This document shows positions 3,281 through 54,907 of a stretch of DNA of 64,000 nucleotides, one piece after another. Each line of letters begins with the position of its first letter. Position 1 is the stretch's first letter. A program made the translations under genes and the position numbers. The notes below the pieces were generated by a model. It worked only from the letters and a program-made list of their open reading frames with translations. It searched no databases and was not told the DNA's origin. This DNA comes from a virus: IMG/VR virus record IMGVR_UViG_3300045988_079665, one strand, 5' to 3'.

Positions 3281-3373
3281 TGGTACTGGCGCTCGGACTC
3301 GAACCGAGATTTTGCGGCAATCGACCGCTAAACTGTGTATAGGACAGCTGGCTTACCATTAACCGACACCAGC
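3281..3373 (-). tRNA. 93-nt class-II (long variable arm) tRNA with anticodon loop CCUAUAC (UAU), CCA encoded
   Basis: Acceptor GCTGGTG/CGCCAGT, D-arm GGTT-AATGGTA-AGCC, T-arm CTCGG-TTCGAGT-CCGAG, 23-nt variable region with GCGG/CCGC stem. Confidence 0.6.
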
Positions 3374-3896: not shown

Positions 3897-4109
3897 TTAA
3901 TCCTCTACATAATATGTTTCACATACATCTTGTACATCATCTCTGTTCGATTTAATATCTAATGTTGCATATGTTGGATTTGCGCCTTCATATACAATTT
4001 TTAGTTTGCAGTCAATCCCAAGATTTTTCATCACAGACTGAATCTTCTGAAATGCCTTACCAAGCAATTCTTCCCTGAGCTGATATTCTTCCAATGTTTT
4101 CGCTACCAT
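3897..4109 (-). CDS. hypothetical early protein (70 aa)
   Basis: ORF track; co-directional tight packing. Confidence 0.7.
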   Translation of the reverse strand: MVAKTLEEYQLREELLGKAFQKIQSVMKNLGIDCKLKIVYEGANPTYATLDIKSNRDDVQDVCETYYVED

Positions 4110-4119
4110 AATTTACTCC

Positions 4120-4461
4120 TTACCAATCAGCATTGATTATAATTTTATTGCCATCAATACGAGCTGATTCTATCAGCCGATAGACGCAATCCATATGCCA
4201 CAAACCTTCAAAATCAGGTCGATTGACAAATTTGCTAAGCTCATCAACTTGTTTGTCGTTAAGTGACATATCTTTACCGTACATAGGTTGTGAATACGGT
4301 TGTCCTTTTACATATGGCTTATAATAACCAATAGATTCGAGAAATTCATACCACCAACTACCGCCACCATCAACTGTATCAACGGCTCGATATGTAACCA
4401 ATTCACCGCAATGTGGACAATAAATTGGCTCTGCACGACTGATTCTAATGTCTAGCCCCAT
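4120..4461 (-). CDS. hypothetical protein with CPHCG zinc-ribbon-like motif (113 aa)
   Basis: ORF track; GGAGATGA RBS; 25-nt leader from promoter 4493-4521. Confidence 0.75.
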   Translation of the reverse strand: MGLDIRISRAEPIYCPHCGELVTYRAVDTVDGGGSWWYEFLESIGYYKPYVKGQPYSQPMYGKDMSLNDKQVDELSKFVNRPDFEGLWHMDCVYRLIESARIDGNKIIINADW

Positions 4462-4492
4462 ATATTATCATCTCCATTCATTTGATAATTGG

Positions 4493-4521
4493 ATTATACC
4501 ATATAAAATTAGATTTGTCAA
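4493..4521 (-). promoter_or_regulatory. consensus sigma-A promoter
   Basis: rc TTGACA-aatctaattttatatgg-TATAAT; -35 contains TGA stop of 4518..4943. Confidence 0.75.
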
Positions 4522-4943
4522 GCATCTTTGATAAATTTATTTTCAATAGCAACCCACTTTTTAATCTGGTCATCTACTCGCACCCATTTGCCATAACAAT
4601 TCAGGTCTGGGTCAAAATACCAGAGTCCATAATAGTTTAGATGCGCCTCGTTGGTAATATTGCTGAATGGATTATCATAACCAATCCAACCAAACAAACC
4701 CGTAACAAACTTTACATCAGAATCATTACCTACTGTAAATACCGCCAAATCGCCTAGTTCATCATGAACAGCCTGCACATTAAATTTGATTTCTGTCCCA
4801 TCTTCTCTATAAAATCCAAGACAACTTCCTTCGCGCTTCTTTACATCTTCATACTGACACACATACTCATGGCAATGCGCCTCATACTCATCATCAAATT
4901 CTGCGCCGCAATATTCACATTTATAAATCGTTGTTTCAATCAT
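4518..4943 (-). CDS. hypothetical protein with C2H2-like motif (141 aa)
   Basis: ORF track; YKCEYCGAEFDDEYEAHCHEYVC. Confidence 0.75.
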   Translation of the reverse strand: MIETTIYKCEYCGAEFDDEYEAHCHEYVCQYEDVKKREGSCLGFYREDGTEIKFNVQAVHDELGDLAVFTVGNDSDVKFVTGLFGWIGYDNPFSNITNEAHLNYYGLWYFDPDLNCYGKWVRVDDQIKKWVAIENKFIKDA

Positions 4944-5515
4944 TTGAACAATTCCTCCATTTCTCTAGTATTGTATTTTCTATTCTTCACATATTCAACT
5001 CGACTTTTGAATTTGCCCCAATCTGCACTACGGATATTATCGTCAATCAATTCACGAATAAAAATCTCATCCTTATATTTGCGCCGTTCGAGCCGTAAAT
5101 CATGTAGCAACTTATATATCTTATATCCATCTCTTGCATTGTATGAATTGAACTCAATAGCATGAAGCACATCTTGAATTTTATTCTCTACTTCTTGCAG
5201 TTTATATTCGACCCATGTCGCCCTTGCTACAAGCTGGTCATGCAGGTCACAGAACGCGCCAATTTGCGCCAATGCTAAATCATAATTGACCAAATTTGAA
5301 TTGTTAAACTGGTCGAAATCGACGGGTTTAGATGGTGCATCAATCTGTTGCACAAAATATCCAAGATTGCGCATTTGCTTTGGTAAATTAACAAGCGCAT
5401 TATCGGCTTTGGTTTTATCATTGAATTGAAATGACTCGCTTAATTCAGTTGTTGGAATCCATTGCCCTATGGCATTATGCATGAGATAGTATTTATTGTT
5501 ATAGAGTACATACAT
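4940..5515 (-). CDS. hypothetical early protein (191 aa)
   Basis: ORF track; 4-nt overlap with downstream gene. Confidence 0.8.
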   Translation of the reverse strand: MYVLYNNKYYLMHNAIGQWIPTTELSESFQFNDKTKADNALVNLPKQMRNLGYFVQQIDAPSKPVDFDQFNNSNLVNYDLALAQIGAFCDLHDQLVARATWVEYKLQEVENKIQDVLHAIEFNSYNARDGYKIYKLLHDLRLERRKYKDEIFIRELIDDNIRSADWGKFKSRVEYVKNRKYNTREMEELFK

Positions 5516-26300: not shown

Positions 26301-26329
26301 TTGACAATCAATAGATTATGTGATATAAT
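26301..26329 (+). promoter_or_regulatory. consensus sigma-A promoter
   Basis: TTGACA-atcaatagattatgtga-TATAAT. Confidence 0.8.
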
Positions 26330-29969: not shown

Positions 29970-30213
29970 TATTTGCCTATGAAGCGGCTACTATGTTGGT
30001 GTGTGGCTGTGGAGGTGCTATTAGGGTTGTGTGGTGAATATACTCCAAGTTCCAACTTAGGCTTAATTGAAAGCTGAAAATAAAAACACTCAAAAATATC
30101 AAACGAGCGGATAGGGAGGACAAGTAGCTCAATGAACTTTGGCATACGTTAATGAAGTCCATAATCTAACCGCTCTAATATATAAACAATAAAACAAAGA
30201 AAGGAGGTTGAAG

Positions 30214-43102: not shown

Positions 43103-43621
43103 ATGATTATAGCAGGATTAGATGCTAGTACGTCTTCTACTGGATGGTCTATATTTGATAATGGGAGGCTCATTGCATATGGCACAATTAAGCCAAAGGG
43201 CGATGATTGGCATGATAGAGTAATGGGACTTACTATGGAATTATCAAGCATATTGAGACAGTATAAGCCAACAATTCTCTATGCTGAGGAAGTGCCATTA
43301 AAAAAAGGCGCGTCAACCATAGAGAAATTGGGTGCAGTACAAGGCGTAATATTAGCATTATGTGCTGGCTTCAAGATAAAGCCATGCTTCTTGATGCCAA
43401 GTAAATGGCGTGGCGACCTTAATCTCTTTGATGGCACAAGAGCTGGTCTACAAAGGGATGTTCTGAAAAAAAAAGCCATAGAGATGGCGAATGAAGAATT
43501 TAGCCTCGATTTGGCATGGGTTGCCCCAAGTAGCAAAAAAAATGAGGATGATTGCGCAGAAGGAATCCTCATAGCCTACTCACAAATAAAAAAAGGGAGT
43601 GTGATGAATGGCTGGAAGTAA
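43103..43621 (+). CDS. RuvC-like Holliday junction resolvase
   Basis: MIIAGLDASTSSTGWSIF..., YAEEVP, KWRGDL, EDDCAEGILIAY fit the RuvC catalytic layout. Confidence 0.7.
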   Translation: MIIAGLDASTSSTGWSIFDNGRLIAYGTIKPKGDDWHDRVMGLTMELSSILRQYKPTILYAEEVPLKKGASTIEKLGAVQGVILALCAGFKIKPCFLMPSKWRGDLNLFDGTRAGLQRDVLKKKAIEMANEEFSLDLAWVAPSSKKNEDDCAEGILIAYSQIKKGSVMNGWK

Positions 43622-44006
43622 CTCTCAGTACTCGATTCTGGTTGATGTTCAGCTACAAGAAGAGAGTATAAAGAAGCAACTTAAAGATATACAAAATAGC
43701 AAAGACACCAAGTTAAAGATTGGCGTTACAGCAGATGGAGCAGAACGAACCAAGACAGAGTTAGATGGTGTAACTCAATCTACTAAAAATCTTGATAATT
43801 CTACTAAAGATTTGATGTTTACATATCAACAATATCGTCAAGTCTTAGATAGTGTAATTAATATCACTGAAAAAATGTATCAGTCAGTGAAATCACTGGA
43901 TGATGCGCAGACAGAACTAAAGAAGGTGTCTGATCTACAAGGCGCGGCACTTGATAATTATACTAAGAAATTATCTGAATCTGGAAAGACAGTAGCAAGA
44001 ACCGGT
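43608..44006 (+). CDS. tape measure protein, exon 1 of 3
   Basis: Ends ...SGKTVARTG at GGT before the group I 5' splice site. Confidence 0.65.
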
Positions 44007-44352
44007 AAACCAAATCGGTCTGAGCCGGTATGTACAGATGGTAAATGTGCATAAAGAACAGCTCCTAAACCCTTGAAAGCCTAAAGAGCCTTATCACTAC
44101 AACATGAGGATTAGATATACCTGAGTGTGAATTATTCATTGTTAACAATGAATTAGTGCGAAAGCAGAAAGACGATAAGGATGATTCCATGGTTGAAAGA
44201 CCTAAAGAATCTGTTGCAAATAATGTATAATATTTGGGACAAAAGGGCAGATTGGGCGCGAAGTCCTGATGAGGGATGTGTCAACAGAATATACAGAGCG
44301 ACCCTCCAATAATATAGGGTGAAGAATTATTCGGGAAGGGATTGAAAACCCC

Positions 44353-44381
44353 TTGACAAATTATTTAAGATGTGATAGTAT
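44353..44381 (+). promoter_or_regulatory. sigma-A promoter inside intron 1
   Basis: TTGACA-aattatttaagatgtga-TAGTAT. Confidence 0.65.
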
Positions 44382-44421
44382 GTAGATACTTAAATAATAT
44401 CTACGAAAGGAAGTATTTATT

Positions 44422-44643
44422 ATGTATCTATCTATTGCGACATTTGTTCTTATAGGCCCATTGATTGTCATTTGTGGTTGGGTAATTATCGTTAAGGATA
44501 TTATTCATTGGATGGAAAAAGACAATGAAGAGGTAGACAAACAGCTGAAAGAAAAATATAATGTGCGCAATGAAACGCCAGAAGAGGAAGAGGCGCGTGT
44601 TGAAGAATACGGGCTTGATGACCAATGGAGTATTCTTAAATAA
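44422..44643 (+). CDS. intron-borne small membrane protein with acidic tail (73 aa)
   Basis: ORF track; GAAAGGAAG RBS; TM LSIATFVLIGPLIVICGWVIIV. Confidence 0.6.
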   Translation: MYLSIATFVLIGPLIVICGWVIIVKDIIHWMEKDNEEVDKQLKEKYNVRNETPEEEEARVEEYGLDDQWSILK

Positions 44644-44657
44644 TTTGTAAATAACTG

Positions 44658-45209
44658 TCAGAAATGGTTTCTGCGGCTACTATGTTTAGGAAGTCCGGCT
44701 TTAATGATTCTGATGCCGTGATACTAGCAAAGGTAGCCGCACAATATCAAAACGTAGCGGATACTGCGGTGTCAGCAGAAGATGCCGTCGCATCTATTGT
44801 TTCTCAGATTCGCGCATTTGGCAAGGATGCAAGCTTTGCCACTACGGTAATCGACGCATATAACGAAGTAGCAAATCGTTTTAGTGTAGGTACTAATGAC
44901 CTATCTAATGCCATGGAAATTGCATCTAGCGGTATGGCTACTTATGGCAATGAATTCTCTGAAATCATTGGGTTAGTTACCGCAGGTACAGAAATCATGT
45001 CAGGACGCAGCTCACAGGTTGCTAGAGGCTTATCCACAATTGCATCTCGTATTGTAAAAAATCAAGATGCTCTTGCAGAATATGGTATCACAGTAAAAAA
45101 TGTAGATGGTAGTTTAAAAAGCACATATGACGTGCTTGCTGAATTGAAGCCAAAATGGGATTCAATGACAGATGCTCAAAGAACTGCTTTAGGCGATACT
45201 ATAGCTGGT
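44658..45209 (+). CDS. tape measure protein, exon 2 of 3
   Basis: SEMVSAATMFRKSGF...AQRTALGDTIAG, TP901-type TMP core pattern. Confidence 0.65.
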
Positions 45210-46777
45210 TAAATTGATTTAGCCAGAGACAGACTTAATTGACGGGAAAGAACAGGGTCGGACTTGTTATCTGTGCATTCGCATGGATGCCTAAGAGCCT
45301 TATACACCAACTTATTATGGCGACATAATAGGGGTCTAAACTAATCATTTAGAGTATGGTAAAAGAGATGAGGATATATGGTCAATCCGCAACGAAGCAT
45401 CTATTGGAATATAGATGAACGCTCAACGAACATCGAAAGCAACCAATAAGTATTGGTAAATGTAACTAACGATAGTTAGAATAAGCCGTTTAACGGACGA
45501 AGCGAGTAGAGTAAGCGATAGTGCTAGTCGCTGAAAGAGTCTGCGTATTACAGTATTGTAATATAAAATATGTTCTATTCCTATGCGAAAGGCATAGGCA
45601 ATGATATTATCAAAATGTGATTGATGGAGGAAGGTGAAAACATATCAAGACTAACAAAGGAAAAAGTTGATGATATATTGATGTCAAGAGGGCTAAAGCT
45701 AAAAGACGATGTATATATTTCAAGTAAATCTAAAATTCACTGTGTAGACGAATATGGATATGAGTACAGTTTAACATTAGATAATATACAAGATAAGAGA
45801 ACGGTTAGTTTTGCTAGATATTCTGTACGAAATCCATATACATTGCACAATTTGAATCTATTTATAAAAGAAAATGAGCTTGAATGCGAATTGCTTTCTA
45901 CAGAGAATCCTAAAAGTGAAAAAGACAAGTTAGAGTTTAGATGCAAATGTGGCAAACATTATTTTCTATGTTATAATCATCTATTGATGAATCAAAAAGA
46001 TACTTGCAATGAATGTGGAAGAGCAAGGGAAAGTAGATATACTCCGGAATATATAAATAGCATTATATCTGTTTTAGGCTACTCTTTGATACCAAATACT
46101 CCTGCGTCATACCGTTCTGTTTGTGTGCAAGATAATGATGGATACAAATATAAGGCAACGTTACCAAATTTGATGAATGGTGCAACGCCTATCAAATTTC
46201 ATAAACTCAATCCATATACAATAGAGAACATGAAGTTGTTTCTAGCTTCTAATAAGTATCCAGTTAAACTTTTAGAGCCAGATGATAAAGTGATAGAAGT
46301 ACGAACAGATTATCTTAAATTTTCTTGTTGCGTATGTGGTTCTGAGTATATGGCGACTTGGGGACAAGTGGTAGAAACAGATAGATTTAGATGCGAAAAA
46401 TGTGTTAAGAAACAATCAAATCTATCATATTATGTTGAACAATATTTAATAGAAAAAGATGTTGAATATATTAGAGAATTTAGATTTGATGATTGCCGTT
46501 ACAAAAGAGCATTACCGTTTGATTTTTATTTGCCATTACATAATTATGTTATTGAGGTAAATGGCGATCAGCACTATTATGAGAATCCAATGTTCCAACA
46601 ATCTCTTGACGAAAGACAGAAAATAGATAAAATTAAAGAAAATTATTGTAAAGAAAATAACATAGGATTTTTAGCAATGCCACGATGGTGGATTCAAAAC
46701 AAATATGAAGTAAAAAGATATAAACAAGAAATAGATAATATCGTTGGGCGAGATTAGCACCCTCGTTTAATAAAAAG
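45210..46777 (+). mobile_element. group I intron 2 in tape measure gene (1568 nt)
   Basis: P1 CUGGU(45205-09)/GCCAG(45222-26) with U.G; TAA at first intron codon; ends in G 46777; in-frame join. Confidence 0.65.
45624..46757 (+). CDS. intron-encoded DUF559/Vsr-like PD-(D/E)XK nuclease with duplicated zinc-ribbon modules
   Basis: FDFYLPLHNYVIEVNGDQHY...DERQKID; two CxxC...CxxC modules each followed by a related ~40-aa repeat. Confidence 0.6.
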   Translation: MEEGENISRLTKEKVDDILMSRGLKLKDDVYISSKSKIHCVDEYGYEYSLTLDNIQDKRTVSFARYSVRNPYTLHNLNLFIKENELECELLSTENPKSEKDKLEFRCKCGKHYFLCYNHLLMNQKDTCNECGRARESRYTPEYINSIISVLGYSLIPNTPASYRSVCVQDNDGYKYKATLPNLMNGATPIKFHKLNPYTIENMKLFLASNKYPVKLLEPDDKVIEVRTDYLKFSCCVCGSEYMATWGQVVETDRFRCEKCVKKQSNLSYYVEQYLIEKDVEYIREFRFDDCRYKRALPFDFYLPLHNYVIEVNGDQHYYENPMFQQSLDERQKIDKIKENYCKENNIGFLAMPRWWIQNKYEVKRYKQEIDNIVGRD

Positions 46778-49700
46778 ACAAATCAATATAAAGTCCTTGC
46801 TGCTGTTATGCAGAACTTTGAACATGCTACAGATGCAACAAAAGTAGCGCTCAACTCTGCGGGCTCTGCTGCACATGAAAATGAACGTTATATGGAGAGC
46901 CTCGAAGCAAAAGTTCAAGCTGTAAAGGCTGAATTTGAAGATTTCTCTAATCGTGTATTGTCAAAAGAATTAGTATCTGGATTCCTTGATGCCGGACAGG
47001 CAGTTCTACAATTTGTGAATACAGATTTTGGCGCATCATTGACAAGAATAGCCGGTGTTGGTACTGCCGTTGCTAGCACACTTGGCTTGATTGGCACAAT
47101 GGGCGCTAAGTTGGTACTTGTAGCAAAACAGCTGCAAAATGTAGGCGGAGCAACTGGGTTATTAGGATTGCTAACAACACCAAAAACAGTGCTTGCCATT
47201 GGTGGCGTTGTGGCTGCACTTACAGCCATGTTCGAGATAATGAAAGCCATTGATGGGATTGATGACAAGAAGCTCACATCTCTCAGTGATACATTGCAAA
47301 CAACAAATGATAAAATAGCTGAAATGTCAGCTGATGGCTCTGAATATGATACACTAATTAAAAAGGCGGGCAATCTTACAGAACAAGAAGAGGCGCGACT
47401 TGGTATTTTACAAGCACAGTTAGATACTCTAAAGAAGCAATCAGTTGAAGAAAATAAGGCATATTATACCGAGTGGCAAAAACAACAGCAAAAAGGTGAC
47501 AGCAGATGGGAATATGGTGAAGGTGATGGTACAGGTACTACATTAACATTTGAGGGACAGACATATACTTTCTATACAACGACTAAAGCCGAAGAAGCGA
47601 CACGGAATTTAAGCGCAGCGATTGTTGATTTACAACAAAAATATGACAATGGAATGTCACAGCAAGAATATATTGCTGGGTTACAAAATATAATTGATGG
47701 TGCTCAAGAAACATATGACAATATTCTTGCGTTAAAAGACCTGTATGCAGAGACCGGGGATGAACAATATAAGCTCACACAACAGCAAGAGATATTTGTT
47801 GACATCATTGAGCATCAAAAAGAAGTTGTAGCTGGTCTTGGCGCAGAATATGCACAAAATTCTGAGGATATTGGACAATTTGGCGATGCAGTAGAAGAAT
47901 CAGCCTCTAAGCTAGATACATATGTTTCCGCTCTTGATGAATATCGTGGTGCAAATGAAGATGCGGCCAGTTCGTCTGAGATTCTTGTCAATTCCCTATT
48001 TGACGCAAATGGACAATTGACAGAAGCCGCCAAACAAGCGTTAACCACAGATGGTGCTATGGCAAGCATGGCGCAATCATTTATTCAGGCACAGCAAGCA
48101 CAAGCACAGGCAGATTTTAGCGCATTGATATTGGCTATTAGTAAAGTTGGAGAAGCGGCTATGGTTACAACCAGCCAATTAGCAACTATGATGGCTATGG
48201 CTGGCGTTGATATTTCTGGCGGAGAAACAAGTGCAGTAGCAAGCCTGAGGCATCAATATTATCTTGAAACCGGTAAAGGTAGTACATCTGGGTCTAAAAT
48301 GGTGGGCGGCAAAGTTGAAATGCAGAACACCAAAGAATTTACAGATTGGGCAGCTTCATATATCCAAAAACAAGCACAAGAAAAATTTGAGAAGCAACAA
48401 AAAGAGTATGCTGATAAGCTCAAGCAGATAGGTACATTTGTCCCATCTGGTGGAGGAGGTGGCGGTGGTTCATCCAGAACCAAGCAAGACCAAGAAGAAG
48501 TTAAAGCTCAAACCATCAATACCATTGAAGAACTGCGTGAATATTTAACTGATGAATCAACTCGCCTCAAGTTAATTGACCCAGATATTAGTAAATCTGA
48601 TTTACAGTCAACTCTATCAGAAGTAGCTACTATATATCAATCCTATCAGGATTATCTATCTCAGCTCAAGCAACAGGGATTTGATGAAACAAGTGAACAG
48701 TATCAACAAGCCGAGGCTGAATTTGCTCAATTTGTTGAAGTATTAAAAACGCTGTTCACACAACTTGTATCTGGTGGCAAATACAGCGTAGATGAGCTTG
48801 TTGGGTATATTGAACAAAATTGTGGCAATCTATCAACCACCATTAGCGGGATGCTAAGTGGATTGAAAACAGAGGTTCAATCGACAATAGCATCTATATC
48901 TGCTTCTACGCATCAAGCATTTGCTTCTGGCGACGCTAACAGTATTATTGGCTCGATTGAAAATGCTTGGGATATGATTAGCTCTATGGGAAGCTCTATA
49001 GATGAGTCTTATAGCTCTGCCGTAGATGAGATTATAGCAAAAGCTGAGCAAGAATCAGAGGTTGCCCAAGAAGTAGCGGATAAATACGAATGGCAAAACA
49101 AGCTACTTGAGGATAAGATAGCTCTTGAAGAAAAGTTAGAGGCACTTGAAAAAGCAAAACAGCGGCGCATGCTTGTATATAGCGAAGGTCGCTTCCAATA
49201 TATGCAAGATGTTGATAAAATATCTTCTGCACAAGCTGAATATCAAGAAACATATAGAGGTGTTGAGCAAAGCCAGATTCAAGGACTTTTGGATAAGATA
49301 GGCGAAGAATCATCCGAGTTCTTTGCTGACTATTTTACAAAAGCTAAAGAGAAAGGATACGGCGACCTTCCAAGTAGTAGCATACAGGCATATCCATCGG
49401 TGTTGAAAAAGCACCTAATGGATTATCTTGAAAAGCAAACAAAAGGAACAGTTCTTGAAGGCGCGGACGAAAGCCAACTAGAAAAGATTTTTGGTTCAGC
49501 TATGAAACCGGGCGAAGCATATGCACAACTTGCAGCCGCTGAAGCCGCAAGACAAGCTGCCGCAGATGAAAGAGCTGAACGAAAAGCAGAGTTAAAAAAG
49601 CAAATTCAGGAAGAAAACGTAAAATATTACGGAGTTCAAACTGACTTTGGTGAGAAGATATTAAACGCACAAACCCAAGCAGAGGTTGAATATTGGACTA

Positions 49701-50431
49701 AGCTTAGAGATACCAAGCAACAGATGATTAAGGAATATAGAGAGGCATATGGTGATGAAGCCGCCTCAAAATATTTCGGAACAGATGTTAGTAAGCAAGA
49801 AGAATGGAAATCTAATAAAGACTTATATAAAGAGGCTTACGAGTCTGGTAGTGAAGCTTGGAGAACTAAAAAAGCCGAGTTCGAAAGGCAACATTATTTT
49901 GACGAAAAAGATAAATATACTGAAAAGAATCCAGACCTCACAGTAGCACAGTATAATGCTGCGACCGCTGTTGATATGGAAGGATTAGGCGAGCAGAGAT
50001 TATATGACAGAATATTTAGAGGCTCTATCACTAAGTCTGAGATTCAAGACCTATATAACAAGTCAAAATCTGACATTTCTAAGGGCTACTTGCTTAATCT
50101 AGCATCTGAGATGCATAAAGCTGGTTATCAGGGATATGCTAGAGGAACTACAAAAGCTGGCGGTGGCTTATCTCTAGTTGGTGAAAACGGCCCAGAACTA
50201 AGAGTGCTGAATCAGGGCGATGGTATATTACCTAACAGCATCACAGATAATCTATGGCGATGGGGCTCTATGACTCCTAGTGATATGCTGGCTTCTTTGG
50301 CTCAAAAAGCACAGAATTGGGCGCAAACGCTTAATATTAGTAATGTCACATTGCCAAATGTACGTGACGCTCAATCGTTCGTAACAGGACTTAGAGAATT
50401 GGCGCAACAATATGTGACAAGACGTAGTTAA
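46778..50431 (+). CDS. tape measure protein, exon 3 of 3
   Basis: TNQYKVLAAVMQNFEHA...; 1217 aa coiled-coil-rich; spliced total about 1534 aa. Confidence 0.7.
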   Translation, partial: TNQYKVLAAVMQNFEHATDATKVALNSAGSAAHENERYMESLEAKVQAVKAEFEDFSNRVLSKELVSGFLDAGQAVLQFVNTDFGASLTRIAGVGTAVASTLGLIGTMGAKLVLVAKQLQNVGGATGLLGLLTTPKTVLAIGGVVAALTAMFEIMKAIDGIDDKKLTSLSDTLQTTNDKIAEMSADGSEYDTLIKKAGNLTEQEEARLGILQAQLDTLKKQSVEENKAYYTEWQKQQQKGDSRWEYGEGDGTGTTLTFEGQTYTFYTTTKAEEATRNLSAAIVDLQQKYDNGMSQQEYIAGLQNIIDGAQETYDNILALKDLYAETGDEQYKLTQQQEIFVDIIEHQKEVVAGLGAEYAQNSEDIGQFGDAVEESASKLDTYVSALDEYRGANEDAASSSEILVNSLFDANGQLTEAAKQALTTDGAMASMAQSFIQAQQAQAQADFSALILAISKVGEAAMVTTSQLATMMAMAGVDISGGETSAVASLRHQYYLETGKGSTSGSKMVGGKVEMQNTKEFTDWAASYIQKQAQEKFEKQQKEYADKLKQIGTFVPSGGGGGGGSSRTKQDQEEVKAQTINTIEELREYLTDESTRLKLIDPDISKSDLQSTLSEVATIYQSYQDYLSQLKQQGFDETSEQYQQAEAEFAQFVEVLKTLFTQLVSGGKYSVDELVGYIEQNCGNLSTTISGMLSGLKTEVQSTIASISASTHQAFASGDANSIIGSIENAWDMISSMGSSIDESYSSAVDEIIAKAEQESEVAQEVADKYEWQNKLLEDKIALEEKLEALEKAKQRRMLVYSEGRFQYMQDVDKISSAQAEYQETYRGVEQSQIQGLLDKIGEESSEFFADYFTKAKEKGYGDLPSSSIQAYPSVLKKHLMDYLEKQTKGTVLEGADESQLEKIFGSAMKPGEAYAQLAAAEAARQAAADERAERKAELKKQIQEENVKYYGVQTDFGEKILNAQTQAEVEYWTKLRDTKQQMIKEYREAYGDEAASKYFGTDVSKQEEWKSNKDLYKEAYESGSEAWRTKKAEFERQHYFDEKDKYTEKNPDLTVAQYNAATAVDMEGLGEQRLYDRIFRGSITKSEIQDLYNKSKSDISKGYLLNLASEMHKAGYQGYARGTTKAGGGLSLVGENGPELRVLNQGDGILPNSITDNLWRWGSMTPSDMLASLAQKAQNWAQTLNISNVTLPNVRDAQSFVTGLRELAQQYVTRRS

Positions 50432-52825: not shown

Positions 52826-54907
52826 ATGGCATTGAATATCACACAGGATGATTATAATATTCTTAGACAATCATATATCAAGCAATATATTAAACTAGAC
52901 CTATTGGATTTCAACATGAACGTCGTAGATGAACTAAGCGGAAATCTGATTGGATTATCAGTTACAGTTGATGCTAATGCTGATTTGCGGCGTTCATGTG
53001 AATGTAGCTTAGTTGTTACGGACAACTCCTTTGAGATTAAGGCTGGCGGTAAGATTTTTCTTGACAAATATATTCGTCCGTGGATAGGTTATTTGAATAT
53101 CCGTACAGGTAATATCCAGTGGTATAATCAGGGTATATATCTAATCAATGCACCTAGTTATCAATATGATGCGGCGACATATACATTATCTTTCTCAGGG
53201 CTTGACTTGATGTCCAAATTGACAGGGTTGAGAAATGGTGAACTGCCGGGTGTGCCAACTAAAATACCTATTGGCTCAGATGTGCGTGGTGCTATTATCG
53301 CCGCATTGGAATTAGGCGGGTTTAATAAGTATATAGTAAGTGAATGCAAAAATGTGGATGATACCATACAAGAAGTACCATATGATATTGAGATAGCACA
53401 AGGCGGCACAGTATATGACATTCTCAAAGAGCTATGTGCTATATTGCCACAATATCAGATGTATTTTGATACAGATGGCGTATTTCACTATGAGCTAATT
53501 CCAACTGGCGCGAACGACCCTGTGCTAATTGATGACGATATGTGGCAGAATATCCTTATCTCAGAATCAGTAAGTACAGATTTTGAGAATGTCAAGAATT
53601 ATATAGAGGTATATGGACGAAGCCATGATATTGACCATTTCAGCGATAAGACAACTGTATCAGGCTCAACTGTGACATTGCATATCCCGTCATTAACACC
53701 AACTGAAACAGGTGGCTCACCATTACAAGAATGGACAGAAATTGGCTTTGTTCCGCCTAGTGATGTAACAGGTGATATCCAGCTTACAATTACAGCTGGT
53801 GCTAGTGAAGCAGAGCCTACCACATTAGGCACATATAAATTTGTCAATAAAGATGGCTCATATGTAAACAAGCTTGAAAAAGACAAATATTATGTTGGAC
53901 AATTCCAAGCGGACGACACATTTTTAGACCTAGGACAAGACCAAGCATATGGAATAGCATATGATAATAACCCAGACAGCCCATTTTATGTGGGTGACCC
54001 TGTTGGTTCTAGCTCCGTTGGTATTATTAGACATGTGTGCTATAGTGGAGAATATGATAATATCACATCTAATGATTTAGCCAAGCAGAGAGCTGACCTT
54101 GAATTATATTGGAGCTGTCGGCTTAATGATAGCATATCATTAGCTACTATACCAATTCCATGGTTAGATGTCAACATTATTATGAGCCATGCCATGAAAT
54201 TGCAAGGCGACCCAAAGAAATATATGATACAGTCATATAATGCAACATACGGTGAATCAAATAGTATGACCATATCAGCGTCAAGTTGGTATCCATATTA
54301 TCTTGTAGATGGAACACAAGAGCCGGTTGAGCTAGAATATATTATGTCAACTGGAACACAATTCATCAGCACGGGTTTTATCCCTAATAATAATACGCGT
54401 GTCCAGATGACATTAGCAATACTTAATGATGTTAGCGGATATTTATTTGGCTCACATTATACTAACGAGAAAGAAAAGCAGGAAGACCCAGATACATACA
54501 CTTATTATTCATTACAATATGATAAGGGTGTGTTTACAATGGGATACGACCAAGAAAATACCAAGACGTTGACTATAGAGCCAACTTTTAATCGTATTAC
54601 GGTTGACATGAATAAAAACCAGCTTACTGTCAATGGACAATCTATTCAGTATGATGCAAAAGAATTCAAGATGAAAAATAATATGGCGCTATTGACTTAT
54701 ACTAAAGACGGATTCTTCCAGACTCCCTGTTTGTCATCATTTTTATATTCATGTAAGATATGGGACGATGGTGTATTGATTAGGGATTATATTCCATATC
54801 AAAATAAATTGGGCGATGTCGGATTATGGGATAAAGTGCATAGCGTATTTTATGGCAATTTTGGCACGGGTAAATTTATTGCTGGGCCAATTGTTAAAAA
54901 AGAATGA
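52826..54907 (+). CDS. tail-associated (Tal-like) baseplate protein (693 aa)
   Basis: Position and size. Confidence 0.5.
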   Translation: MALNITQDDYNILRQSYIKQYIKLDLLDFNMNVVDELSGNLIGLSVTVDANADLRRSCECSLVVTDNSFEIKAGGKIFLDKYIRPWIGYLNIRTGNIQWYNQGIYLINAPSYQYDAATYTLSFSGLDLMSKLTGLRNGELPGVPTKIPIGSDVRGAIIAALELGGFNKYIVSECKNVDDTIQEVPYDIEIAQGGTVYDILKELCAILPQYQMYFDTDGVFHYELIPTGANDPVLIDDDMWQNILISESVSTDFENVKNYIEVYGRSHDIDHFSDKTTVSGSTVTLHIPSLTPTETGGSPLQEWTEIGFVPPSDVTGDIQLTITAGASEAEPTTLGTYKFVNKDGSYVNKLEKDKYYVGQFQADDTFLDLGQDQAYGIAYDNNPDSPFYVGDPVGSSSVGIIRHVCYSGEYDNITSNDLAKQRADLELYWSCRLNDSISLATIPIPWLDVNIIMSHAMKLQGDPKKYMIQSYNATYGESNSMTISASSWYPYYLVDGTQEPVELEYIMSTGTQFISTGFIPNNNTRVQMTLAILNDVSGYLFGSHYTNEKEKQEDPDTYTYYSLQYDKGVFTMGYDQENTKTLTIEPTFNRITVDMNKNQLTVNGQSIQYDAKEFKMKNNMALLTYTKDGFFQTPCLSSFLYSCKIWDDGVLIRDYIPYQNKLGDVGLWDKVHSVFYGNFGTGKFIAGPIVKKE

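Follow-up and report, generated by a model that had tools for sequence, protein, structure and literature searches.

Positions 44007-44657 of the window, by which we mean the whole 64,000-nt stretch of viral DNA that was analysed (IMG/VR record IMGVR_UViG_3300045988_079665), very probably form a group I intron that splices itself out of the tape measure gene and loops out an independent cargo gene, for which a role in membrane-level competition is the best guess. An initial annotation had proposed three core features, namely a group I intron, an internal promoter, and a membrane-protein open reading frame (ORF) that is not an endonuclease, and the comparative evidence set out below supports all three.

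A clean insertion in the tape measure gene

The insertion splits the tape measure gene in frame, and short sequences near its 5' end can pair with both flanking exons. The elements at the exon borders are the following:

43608..44006, + strand: tape measure exon 1, the last six bases of which (ACCGGU, 44001-06) are the 5' strand of P1
44007..44657, + strand: proposed group I intron 1, 651 nt, with a terminal G at 44657
44658..45209, + strand: tape measure exon 2, the first five bases of which (UCAGA) are the P10 strand
44019..44029, + strand: internal guide sequence, pairing with both exon ends
44001-06 / 44024-29: P1, the end of exon 1 (ACCGGU) with GCCGGU, and U44006.G44024 at the splice site
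44019-23 / 44658-62: P10, UCUGA with UCAGA of exon 2

Read through, the exon-1 frame meets a TAA at 44052-54, soon past the 5' splice site. Joining 44006 to 44658, as had been suggested, does yield an in-frame and tape-measure-like protein (...KTVARTG/SEMVSAATMFRKSGF...). In profile searches this spliced protein aligns in one stretch across the junctions, both with PF10145 (residues 120-317) and with TIGR01760 (residues 91-375). Its first 402 aa align by tblastn in a single piece, at 99-100% coverage, with unbroken tape measure genes from five Enterocloster phages in culture. The Enterocloster phage CB457P1 has no break at the intron 1 site (..VARTADEMVEAAT..).

The P1 pairing was present as claimed, including the U.G at the splice site, and so was the terminal G of the intron; a G precedes the 3' splice site in 25/25 extracted copies. 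Among 17 variants the splice-site pair is U.G in 14, C-G in two, and G-C in one, and one internal P1 pair covaries from C-G to U-A. The latter is a compensatory change in variant L032, where the exon sequence ACUGGU pairs with the guide GCCAGU. In variants L028 and L042, exon 2 starts with UCGGA, a one-sided A-to-G change that retains the P10 pair as U.G.

The probable ribozyme core

A group I fold was derived from an alignment of the 17 divergent variants, and their comparison argues strongly for it. Pairing is possible in 97.0% of cells compared with 87.1% in shuffled alignments, and 0/500 shuffles reach 97.0%; 33/67 pairs have changed on both sides, compared with 15.6 in the shuffles. Slid controls give only 28-45% pairing and just 2-4 both-sided pairs. 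The predicted core, comprising the covarying helices P2 to P9 and a P3/P7 pseudoknot, is laid out as follows:

44030..44052, + strand: P2 hairpin (44030-36 / 44046-52), with a nearly conserved loop GAUGGUAAA
44061-64 / 44296-99, + strand: P3, GCUC with GAGC, forming a pseudoknot with P7
44070..44256, + strand: P4-P5 domain
44070-72 / 44254-56, + strand: P4, 3 bp, invariant
44079-81 / 44246-48, + strand: P5, 3 bp, invariant
44089-95 / 44174-80, + strand: P5a, with 5/7 pairs compensatory
44107-09 / 44120-22 and 44157-59 / 44164-66, + strand: hairpins within P5a, the second a GAAA hairpin
44183-87 / 44207-11, + strand: helix enclosing a GAAA hairpin (44191-94 / 44199-202)
44135-52 and 44213-40, + strand: optional hairpins in the P4-P5 domain
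44263..44277, + strand: P6 hairpin (44263-66 / 44274-77), followed by J6/7 GUGUCAA
44285..44333, + strand: P7 region, enclosing the P3 3' strand and P8; pairs C44285-G44333, G44287-C44332, and 44288-91 / 44328-31, with A44286 bulged
44301-05 / 44316-20, + strand: P8, preceded by J7/3 ACA and followed by J8/7 GAAGAA(U) at 44321-27
44336..44354, + strand: P9 hairpin, AAGGG 44336-40 with CCCUU 44350-54, with 5/5 pairs compensatory

Compensatory change is found in P3, P6, P7, and P8 alike. P3 is 100% paired with 3/4 pairs changed on both sides (variant L041 has CCUCUC/GGGAGG), P2 has changes on both sides in 4/7 pairs, and P6 switches from UCC/GGA to CCG/CGG in 11/17 sequences. In the P7/P8 region, C-G and U-A switch in step across all 17 sequences (6 and 11), and an A-U pair is replaced by G-C or U-A in four sequences. 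P4 and P5, being invariant, are consistent with the fold without adding covariation support, and the register chosen for them is favoured by L041 alone. The invariant pair G44287-C44332, beside the bulge at 44286, is a candidate for the G-binding pair. Variant L040 has an extra hairpin inserted in L8.

Less can be read from a single sequence: the minimum-energy fold of the core is weakly better than that of shuffles (z -1.87) and misses the pseudoknot. A search with Rfam RF00028, the kind of covariance-model check suggested beforehand, returned no match to intron 1 (441 nt searched), either at the gathering score or at E<=10. Several helices placed manually at an early stage were dropped on covariation, namely GAGGG/CCCUC as P8, GGGC/GUCC and UGUGU/AUACA as hairpins, CCCUU/AAGGG as P4, and ACCCU/AGGGU as P3.

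A probable promoter inside the intron

Downstream of the core lies a sequence with all the parts of a host-type promoter:

44353..44381, + strand: sigma-A/sigma-70-type promoter, with -35 TTGACA (44353-58), a 17-bp spacer, TG (44373-74), and -10 TAGTAT (44376-81)

The promoter originally read here (TTGACA-17-TAGTAT) holds up well, being conserved throughout the variants and one of the phage's own class of promoters. Simple promoter-like matches are not enriched in this AT-rich stretch (21 vs 16.3 expected). The extended motif TTGACA-N14-TGnTAnnnT, on the other hand, occurs at 13 sites in the window vs 0.09 expected. Eleven of these 13 sites fall in the non-structural region at 2.5-26 kb, and one at 26301 stands upstream of + strand ORFs that continue as far as the structural genes; from their position only, early use of these promoters may be supposed. 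Transcription from the intronic copy would start near 44387-90.

The first two bases of the -35 hexamer overlap the 3' strand of P9. The promoter site is kept in 17/17 aligned variants, including those in which it and P9 do not overlap. In principle, RNA pairing instead of promoter function could explain the conservation of the -10 region, a point taken up again below.

The predicted ORF-bracketing helix and the leader

Between the core and the 3' splice site, a long-range helix brackets the ORF, and the leader can cover the start codon:

44353-70 / 44634-51, + strand: predicted long-range helix (P9.1-like), 18 bp, looping out the ORF
44634..44651, + strand: 3' strand of this helix, spanning the final three codons, the stop codon, and the next 8 nt
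44382..44431, + strand: candidate translational-control hairpin, GUAGAUAC (44382-89) with GUAUCUAU (44424-31), overlapping the AUG
44406-13, + strand: Shine-Dalgarno sequence AAAGGAAG

An ORF-bracketing helix of 13-18 bp, made of differing sequences, is found in 8/8 variant types tested. For the leader, the hairpin GTAGATA/TATCTAC (44382-88 / 44398-404) that had been put forward did not survive: the minimum-energy fold lacks it, and relatives do not conserve its 3' arm. A better fit is obtained when the -10 zone pairs with the start codon. This candidate AUG-covering hairpin is part of the leader's minimum-energy fold (-16.5 kcal/mol, z -2.9), and an analogous -10/AUG pairing is found in 7/10 variants.

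The cargo protein and its diversity

44422..44643, + strand: 73-aa ORF, with an N-terminal transmembrane (TM) helix at about residues 3-24 and an acidic tail containing ..EEYGLDDQW..

This is the only substantial ORF of the intron, and, as described earlier, its stop codon lies 14 nt before the 3' splice site. The reading as a membrane-protein ORF without endonuclease character is borne out by a conserved coding frame and by the occurrence of the protein in this intron only. In 15 clusters at 82-99% identity the protein has a constant length of 73 aa, except for one 43-aa fragment, and the window differs from L020 by 11 synonymous and seven non-synonymous codon changes (counted by eye on the alignment). 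In total 144 clusters were found, and 9/9 of those for which encoding contigs were looked up sit between exon 1 and exon 2.

Searches of Pfam, NCBIfam, PHROGs, and PADLOC gave no homology of the 73-aa protein to exclusion, holin, toxin, defence, or endonuclease families. Known exclusion families, such as HK97 gp15, T4 Imm, and lactococcal Sie, are mutually unrelated, so that a missing match to them says little. The AlphaFold model, a single long helix (pLDDT 67), offers too little information to be worth a fold search.

All copies seen (about 45 loci with at least 12 cargo types) have one or two small ORFs, and no ORF-less or endonuclease-carrying copy occurs among these loci. The cargo proteins, 56-110 aa in length, combine 1-3 TM helices with a charged tail, and an acidic-[WYF]-G motif, mostly at the end, is present in every one of the at least 12 types except one. 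The proteins are 14-49% identical, compared with about 80-90% conservation of the ribozyme, and the cargo type tracks the type of tape measure exon 1.

Distribution and mobility

The intron is probably fixed at one tape measure site in a clade of gut siphophages of about 70-100 kb that are related to Enterocloster phages. It was present in 23/23 related IMG/VR loci and in 41/41 contigs with the core motif, and IMG/VR yielded no tape-measure junction that was without the intron. Among the matches listed, only distant Enterocloster phages are without intron 1, and none of at least 120 bacterial-genome loci contained the intron. The search pattern AAAGCCTN{1,2}AGAGCCTT proved too unspecific for the genome and viral collections. 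Among cultured phages, nucleotide searches returned no close relative, and the sole match was that of 76 nt of intron 2 to CB457P1, a phage isolated from sewage (PMC11035940).

With respect to homing, we found neither an intron-encoded endonuclease (LAGLIDADG, GIY-YIG, HNH, His-Cys, PD-(D/E)xK, or EDxHD) nor, among the matches listed, a presence/absence polymorphism at the site in close relatives. The cargo had also been called a moron. Morons are added independent transcription units, with their own promoter and usually their own terminator, that are expressed from a prophage. In favour of the label is strong evidence for the gene's own, conserved promoter, of a class with 13 sites vs 0.09 expected. 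Less in keeping with it, there is no terminator directly after the ORF (a weak terminator-like site lies at 44780-95), and the two cultured relatives with a described lifestyle are virulent, PMBT24 being reported to be a virulent siphovirus and CB457P1 coming from sewage (PMC11035940). Since the term implies expression from a prophage, a safer wording is an independently transcribed gene nested in a late-gene intron.

How the intron may work, and other readings

In the tape-measure transcript, the first ~350 nt of the intron would fold into the ribozyme, from P1 to P9 with the P3/P7 pseudoknot, and the 18-bp long-range helix would loop out a 263-nt segment with the ORF, bringing the 3' splice site beside the core. 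P10 would then align exon 2, and GTP-initiated splicing would join ...ACCGGU to UCAGAA.... Separately, the host-type promoter within P9 and the long-range helix would start an mRNA near 44388. This short mRNA would contain neither the ribozyme nor the 5' arm of the AUG-covering hairpin, so that the 73-aa protein would be made mainly from it. Such an escape of a short transcript from an AUG hairpin would follow the logic of the T4 intron endonuclease genes. The cargo would behave as a cassette, swapped or diverged beyond alignment between lineages, with the ribozyme, promoter, and helix flanks fixed.

The most likely role of the cargo is phage competition at the membrane, for example by blocking DNA entry of related phages, and superinfection exclusion is our best guess for its function. 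We tentatively suggest that the intron persists through the benefit of its cargo and not through homing, with diversifying membrane-protein cassettes for exclusion or other competition at tape-measure-mediated DNA entry being exchanged between fixed flanks among competing gut phages; this is possible, and well short of probable. If true, the ribozyme is a neutral docking site for a host-polymerase-driven gene within a late structural gene, which it leaves unbroken, and the intron carries a hypervariable phage-against-phage locus.

There is a substantial, though less than even, chance that the intron and its independent cargo are real and that the protein is something other than an exclusion factor, namely a holin/antiholin-like protein for lysis timing, a small toxin that stabilises the intron-bearing allele, or a helper in membrane insertion or tail assembly of the tape measure protein. 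Holins and small type I toxins are generally described as small, with TM helices and a charged C-terminal tail, and the cargo proteins (56-110 aa, 1-3 TM helices, a highly charged C-terminal tail) would suit that description; a cargo type that tracks the exon-1 type would suit a partner of the tape measure protein. However, no holin or toxin family was matched in Pfam, NCBIfam, PHROGs, or PADLOC, and a structural helper would be expected to be conserved, whereas the cargo falls to 14-20% identity at a ribozyme conservation of 80-90%.

It is improbable that the promoter-like sequence is kept as RNA structure only, with the ORF being translated from the excised intron or the pre-mRNA and no independent transcript being made. 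All promoter parts do overlap proposed RNA pairings (the 3' strand of P9, the long-range helix on its 5' side, and an arm of the AUG hairpin), and the local lack of enrichment in simple promoter matches agrees with this. However, the paired sequences covary freely, and TTGACA, the 17-bp spacing, and TGnTAnnnT do not; the motif is constant even in L026, L040, and L041, whose helices use other bases, and 12 other sites in the window carry its extended form.

Very unlikely is a decayed, splicing-dead relic or another kind of insertion with separate tape-measure polypeptides (one made of exon 1 extended by 16 intron codons, the other of exons 2-3 with a start at ATG 44664): gene callers annotate the pieces as separate ORFs, the PMBT24 paper described the split CB457P1 gene (broken at the intron 2 site) in the same manner (PMC11035940), Rfam gives no match, and three variants are without the U.G, but compensatory changes preserve the exon-intron P1 and the whole catalytic core across lineages, P10 is still pairable, the terminal G is invariant, ATG 44664 has no preceding Shine-Dalgarno sequence, and the profile and tblastn alignments cross the junction directly.

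Known systems and significance

For phages, we found no description of an intron in which a promoter-bearing membrane-protein gene replaces the homing endonuclease. Phage group I introns are usually viewed as selfish, with a homing endonuclease or with nothing. The intron described here constantly bears a membrane-protein gene, replaced or diverged many times over a constant ribozyme, across an abundant clade of gut phages.

The nearest parallels are the T4 introns. Gott et al. reportedly found in 1988 that the ORFs of these introns have their own promoters, giving a short transcript that escapes the hairpin. The sunY ORF also lies near the 3' end of its intron. Both td/I-TevI and nrdD (sunY)/I-TevII resemble the present case in that the intron sits in an essential phage gene and the ORF is looped out from a peripheral helix. 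Further likenesses are that the 3' end of the ORF and intron structure overlap and that an in-frame stop is met shortly past the 5' splice site. T4 introns are described with hairpins that sequester the ribosome-binding site and with overlap of ORF and core (PMC3073962); the hairpin over the translation start has its counterpart here in the candidate AUG-covering hairpin. Unlike in T4, the cargo is a small membrane protein and not a GIY-YIG or HNH endonuclease, the promoter has a host sigma-A-type consensus inside a late structural gene, and the cargo is hypervariable, with no endonuclease-bearing or ORF-less form found.

For the possible function, HK97 gp15 offers a comparison. This small membrane exclusion protein is encoded beside the tape measure gene, and its block of DNA entry depends on the incoming phage's tail (PMC3594210). 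As is proposed for the cargo, it is a small membrane protein whose gene, located at the tape measure gene within the tail operon, forms a transcription unit of its own. In contrast, gp15 is intergenic instead of intronic, is expressed from a prophage, and has no sequence similarity to the cargo, whose function remains our guess.

Group I introns with genes unrelated to mobility are described from organelles, including fungal mitochondrial rps3 and the Discosoma ND5 intron, which houses 15 genes (PMC3073962). They share with the present intron the housing of genes unrelated to homing or splicing. Those are housekeeping genes, for which own promoters are not described in that source, whereas here a phage carries a fast-evolving accessory gene with a dedicated promoter.

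If confirmed, the case would mean that introns can carry accessory genes in phages and would offer a means of nesting one gene within another that follows a different transcription programme. It would also point to a family of phage membrane proteins that is new and unannotated, and the location of these proteins in the tape measure gene hints at involvement in competition over DNA entry. Interrupted tape measure genes of this kind are treated as separate ORFs by gene callers and in the published account of related phages, and Rfam misses the ribozyme.

A second intron in the same gene

45210-46777: intron 2, with a homologue in Enterocloster phage CB457P1

Like intron 1, intron 2 is assigned to group I and has an ORF 3' of the core that ends 14-20 nt before the splice site. 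It differs in that its P4 is canonical (UGaCGGG/UCCGCA) and that a large insert separates P7 from the 3' strand of P3. Its ORF is of 340-414 aa or is absent altogether, and the intron itself is missing from many relatives that retain intron 1. Rfam gives a sub-threshold match to intron 2 (22.9 bits, E 9e-4, with a gathering score of 50).

Two motifs near the 5' end of intron 1 had been noted as shared with intron 2, where the first recurs exactly and the second in a similar form. The first, AAAGAACAG at 44053-61, reappears at 45247-55; it was rejected as a homologous element, being part of J2/3-P3 in intron 1 but of J4/5 and a hairpin arm in intron 2. The second has the same structural role in both: GCCTAAAGAGCCTTATCAC (44079-97) resembles GCCTAAGAGCCTTATACAC (45289-307) apart from a 1-nt indel and two more differences, and the two introns share the P5/P5a strand GCCUAA(A)GAGCCUUAU.

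Insertion in the tape measure gene

The tape measure gene lies in three pieces (43608-44006, 44658-45209, and 46778-50431), and its first gap, 44007-44657 (intron 1), spans 651 nt. The frame of exon 1 continues for 16 codons into this insertion and then meets a TAA stop (44052-54). Joining 44006 to 44658 and 45209 to 46778 yields a tape measure protein of 1535 aa, which PF10145 matches in one stretch (residues 120-317, E 6.9e-22), as does TIGR01760 (residues 91-375, E 2.8e-26). The junctions at residues 133/134 and 317/318 are crossed by these matches. The first 402 residues align by tblastn in a single piece (99-100% coverage) with the corresponding genes of five cultured Enterocloster bolteae phages (CB473P3, CB473P1, CB457P2, CB473P2, and PMBT24), the last being a virulent siphovirus with a tape measure protein of 1508 aa (PMC11035940). 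Enterocloster phage CB457P1 has ...GLTVARTADEMVEAAT... where the window joins GKTVARTG to SEMVSAAT, and it is ungapped there; its tape measure gene was called “split” in the PMBT24 paper, in which the intron was not recognised (PMC11035940). The stretch 44007-44657 is a clean insertion in one gene. All sequence features listed for it in the initial annotation were found, with three corrections concerning the hairpin arms, the end of the exon 1 frame, and the second of two motifs said to be shared with intron 2 (45210-46777). Both motifs are present, the second being similar rather than identical.

Proposed ribozyme fold

Rfam gave no match for intron 1, at gathering score or at E<=10 (441 nt searched), and we therefore derived its structure from relatives; for intron 2, a full-length group I match was obtained below threshold (22.9 bits, E 9e-4). 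A protein-guided scan of IMG/VR returned 23 related loci, all 23 interrupted at exactly the intron 1 site, by 616-829 nt. Seventeen distinct intron 1 versions from related loci were aligned (alignment A3), and this alignment is the basis of the pair counts.

Paired elements of intron 1 (window coordinates, 5' strand / 3' strand)
44001-06 / 44024-29 (+): P1; U44006.G44024 is the splice-site pair
44019-23 / 44658-62 (+): P10, aligning exon 2
44030-36 / 44046-52 (+): P2
44061-64 / 44296-99 (+): P3, pseudoknotted with P7
44070-72 / 44254-56 (+): P4
44079-81 / 44246-48 (+): P5, bearing a branched extension
44089-95 / 44174-80 (+): P5a of the P5 extension, which also has two GAAA-capped hairpins and two optional hairpins
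44263-66 / 44274-77 (+): P6
44285, 44287-91 / 44328-33 (+): P7; the A44286 bulge adjoins the invariant G44287-C44332 pair
44301-05 / 44316-20 (+): P8
44336-40 / 44350-54 (+): P9

In A3, standard pairs fill 97.0% of cells, a value that none of 500 shuffles attains (87.1 +/- 0.6), and both-sided changes occur in 33 of 67 pairs versus 15.6 in shuffles. When the 3' partners are moved by 1-3 columns, pairing falls to 28-45% and both-sided changes to 2-4 pairs. The outermost P7 pair switches in step between C-G and U-A in all 17 sequences, and another P7 pair is found as A-U, G-C, or U-A. P3 appears as GCUC/GAGC, GCCC/GGGC, and CCUCUC/GGGAGG, all five P9 pairs show compensatory change, and in related locus L032 P1 covaries between exon and intron. 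P4 and P5 have three pairs each, all invariant, and their chosen register is favoured by the most divergent copy (L041) alone. A terminal G is present in each of the 25 extracted intron 1 copies. At position -1, three variants (L027, L036, and L041) replace the canonical U.G, two with C-G and one with G-C; in L041 both sides of the 5' splice-site pair have changed, so that pairing is kept and the wobble lost. The covarying fold, the terminal G, and the in-frame insertion all argue for the group I assignment made in the initial annotation, and we regard intron 1 as very probably a group I intron.

At 44181-44312 lies a 43-aa ORF, shared with relatives, that overlaps the ribozyme core. Since its amino acids change along with the compensatory RNA changes in P6, it seems to reflect conservation of the RNA and not to be a gene.

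Site occupancy

A core-motif scan of IMG/VR found 41 contigs with one copy each. All those with a sufficiently long locus share one 5' end, located 220-270 nt upstream, and therefore one insertion site. Among the copies examined, no ORF-less or endonuclease-bearing intron 1 was seen, and a search of IMG/VR gave no intron-less junction in tape measure context.

Many independent metagenome contigs begin within intron 1 (L003, L012-L019, and L021-L024), seven of them at P9, 84-88 nt before the ORF, adjoining the boundary between conserved core and variable cassette; another (L020) begins 3 nt before the 5' splice site. The pattern looks like assembly breaks at the point where a ribozyme common to several phages in one sample is joined to differing cassettes.

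The predicted cargo protein

The cargo is a 73-aa ORF (44422-44643) with 15 cluster-level homologues at 82-99% identity, all of 73 aa save one 43-aa fragment. Between the window and L020, 11 synonymous and 7 non-synonymous changes were counted by eye on the alignment, a ratio of roughly 0.2. Between lineages, ribozyme cores are about 80-90% identical and the ORFs only 14-49%. The architecture is constant, namely 56-110 aa with 1-3 N-terminal TM helices and a charged linker, and every cargo type but one has a C-terminal acidic-[WYF]-G motif, in many cases KYDND[WY]G. A tandem pair of such small ORFs is present in some introns. AlphaFold models the 73-aa protein as one long helix.

A profile search of 5.8 billion proteins gave 144 clusters, none of them named or carrying a Pfam domain; of these, nine had their contigs looked up, and all nine are located in the gap separating tape measure exon 1 from exon 2. 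The cargo has no meaningful match in Pfam, NCBIfam, PHROGs, or PADLOC which, together with the constant TM helices, agrees with the earlier description of a membrane-protein ORF that is not an endonuclease.

A predicted internal promoter

In 4 kb of AT-rich DNA, 21 sequences resemble promoters where 16.3 are expected; the proposed TTGACA-17-TAGTAT promoter with its upstream TG is one of them, and such a match taken alone proves nothing. The extended motif TTGACA-N14-TGnTAnnnT, on the other hand, occurs at 13 sites in the 64-kb window versus 0.09 expected, a count that none of 100 shuffles attains. Eleven of these sites lie at 2.5-26.3 kb, amid non-structural genes and on both strands, and that in intron 1 is the only + strand site within the structural block. 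All 17 variants keep both hexamers, the TG, and the 17-bp spacing, including three (L026, L040, and L041) with other bases in P9 and in the long-range helix around the ORF, and paired bases around these fixed positions covary freely. From the excess, the conservation, and the free covariation we conclude, on sequence grounds, that intron 1 carries one of the phage's own predicted host-type promoters; a promoter at this place had been proposed in the initial annotation. The motif appears to define a sharp promoter class marking the presumed early region, and the positions of the sibling sites suggest that the intron 1 promoter would fire early.

The 12 further copies (2589-26329 and 54146-54174) often start with TTGACAAAT and end in TATAAT; one minus-strand copy lies within the structural block. 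A terminator-like hairpin (AGATGC CGTC GCATCT) with a T-rich tail at 44780-44795, in exon 2 and 137 nt past the intron ORF stop, might end the cargo transcript or be a chance match.

Leader and ORF-bracketing helix

The leader hairpin of the initial annotation did not hold up: its arms, relocated to 44382-88 and 44398-404, pair in the window's sub-lineage only, and the hairpin is missing from the minimum-energy fold (-16.5 kcal/mol, z -2.9). That fold instead joins GUAGAUAC (44382-89) to GUAUCUAU (44424-31, overlapping the AUG) and GUGAUAG to CUAUUGC. In 7 of 10 cargo types, differing in sequence, the -10/+1 zone pairs with the Shine-Dalgarno or AUG zone in the minimum-energy fold (z -4.2 for the L026 leader). 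Transcription is expected to start near 44388, and the 5' arm of this hairpin is situated there or further upstream, so that promoter-initiated mRNA would be without it; in read-through tape measure RNA, the hairpin would cover the start codon. The folds suggest translational control by covering of the AUG. The intron ORFs of T4 are reportedly provided with their own promoters, letting a short transcript escape the RBS hairpin, as attributed to Gott et al. 1988. Hairpins that sequester the RBS are described for the ORFs of T4 introns (PMC3073962), which intron 1 resembles in the predicted hairpin over its translation start.

A long-range helix (44353-70 / 44634-51; 18 nt, 94% complementary) encloses the entire 73-aa ORF in its loop and ends only 6 nt from the 3' splice site. 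Its 5' strand consists of the -35 hexamer and spacer of the promoter, and its 3' strand of the last three ORF codons, the stop codon, and 8 nt beyond. All eight cargo types tested have such a bracket, fully paired in L025 (14/14), L028 (15/15), and L041 (13/13), and elsewhere of 16 nt at 94% (L032 and L042), 17 nt at 88% (L040), or 16 nt at 75% (L026). Its recurrence from unlike sequences marks it as a selected structure. Intron 1 resembles T4 td/I-TevI in that the ORF overlaps the intron core, an overlap documented there (PMC3073962).

CTTAAATAAT occurs twice, in the ORF leader (44389-98) and at the ORF end (44635-44), both copies being perfectly complementary to ATTATTTAAG in the promoter spacer (44360-69). 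The leader copy could thus compete locally for pairing with the 5' strand of the long-range helix, and this choice of partners might work as a switch.

Function and novelty

Comparison among relatives makes an intron 1 with putative membrane-protein cargo well supported. For its role our best, though tentative, guess is membrane-level competition between phages, e.g., superinfection exclusion, prompted by the independent host-type promoter, the small membrane protein, its fast sequence turnover beside a conserved ribozyme, and the tape measure location. A holin-like, toxin-like, or assembly role may apply instead. The closest functional analogue for this putative role is the moron HK97 gp15, which sits next to the tape measure gene on the side of the tail chaperone gene; its product, a small protein of the inner membrane, prevents DNA entry in a manner that depends on the tail (PMC3594210).

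It is well known that phage genes can contain group I introns and that these can have internal promoters and RBS hairpins. Organelles provide examples of group I introns with non-mobility ORFs (rps3; Discosoma ND5) (PMC3073962). For phages, a full-text literature search turned up no group I intron whose cargo is a membrane protein or a hypervariable cassette.

Other introns of the tape measure gene

In this phage clade the tape measure gene (window 43608-50431; loci L025-L047) is an intron hotspot, relatives combining sites after residues 133, 317, 104, 204, 238, 251, and 359 differently. At the sites other than that of intron 1 (after residues 104, 204, 238, 251, 317, and 359), inserts measure about 310-480 nt or 1.2-1.8 kb, and the long ones at the intron 2 site carry ORFs of 340-414 aa. 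Comparison of intron 2 with the CB457P1 homologue shows covariation in P7 (GAACA/UGUUC) and in several hairpins, and a multi-hairpin insert of roughly 115 nt separates P7 from the P3 3' strand. The 378-aa ORF of intron 2 (45621-46757) has a C-terminus that looks nuclease-like by eye and no match in Pfam, NCBIfam, or PADLOC. Among relatives, intron 2 lacks an ORF in L006 and L010, carries ORFs of 340, 377, or 414 aa, or is absent (L004, L005, L007, and L008).

The tape measure gene of CB457P1 was published as two separate ORFs; between them (L001, about 3988-5150) lies an intron 2 homologue, by our reading inserted 11 nt downstream of the window's site. The ORF of this intron seems in turn to be disrupted by a structured insert of about 290 nt (about 4700-4990), possibly a nested element. 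The close relative L010 has a 241-aa GIY-YIG ORF (1462-2187) between a RuvC-like gene and tape measure exon 1; this free-standing endonuclease, beside an endonuclease-less intron, might mobilise the region in trans. Elsewhere in the window, Rfam gave gathering-level matches to drum RNA (29974-30094, + strand, 45 bits) and a tRNA (3284-3373, minus strand, 45.6 bits).
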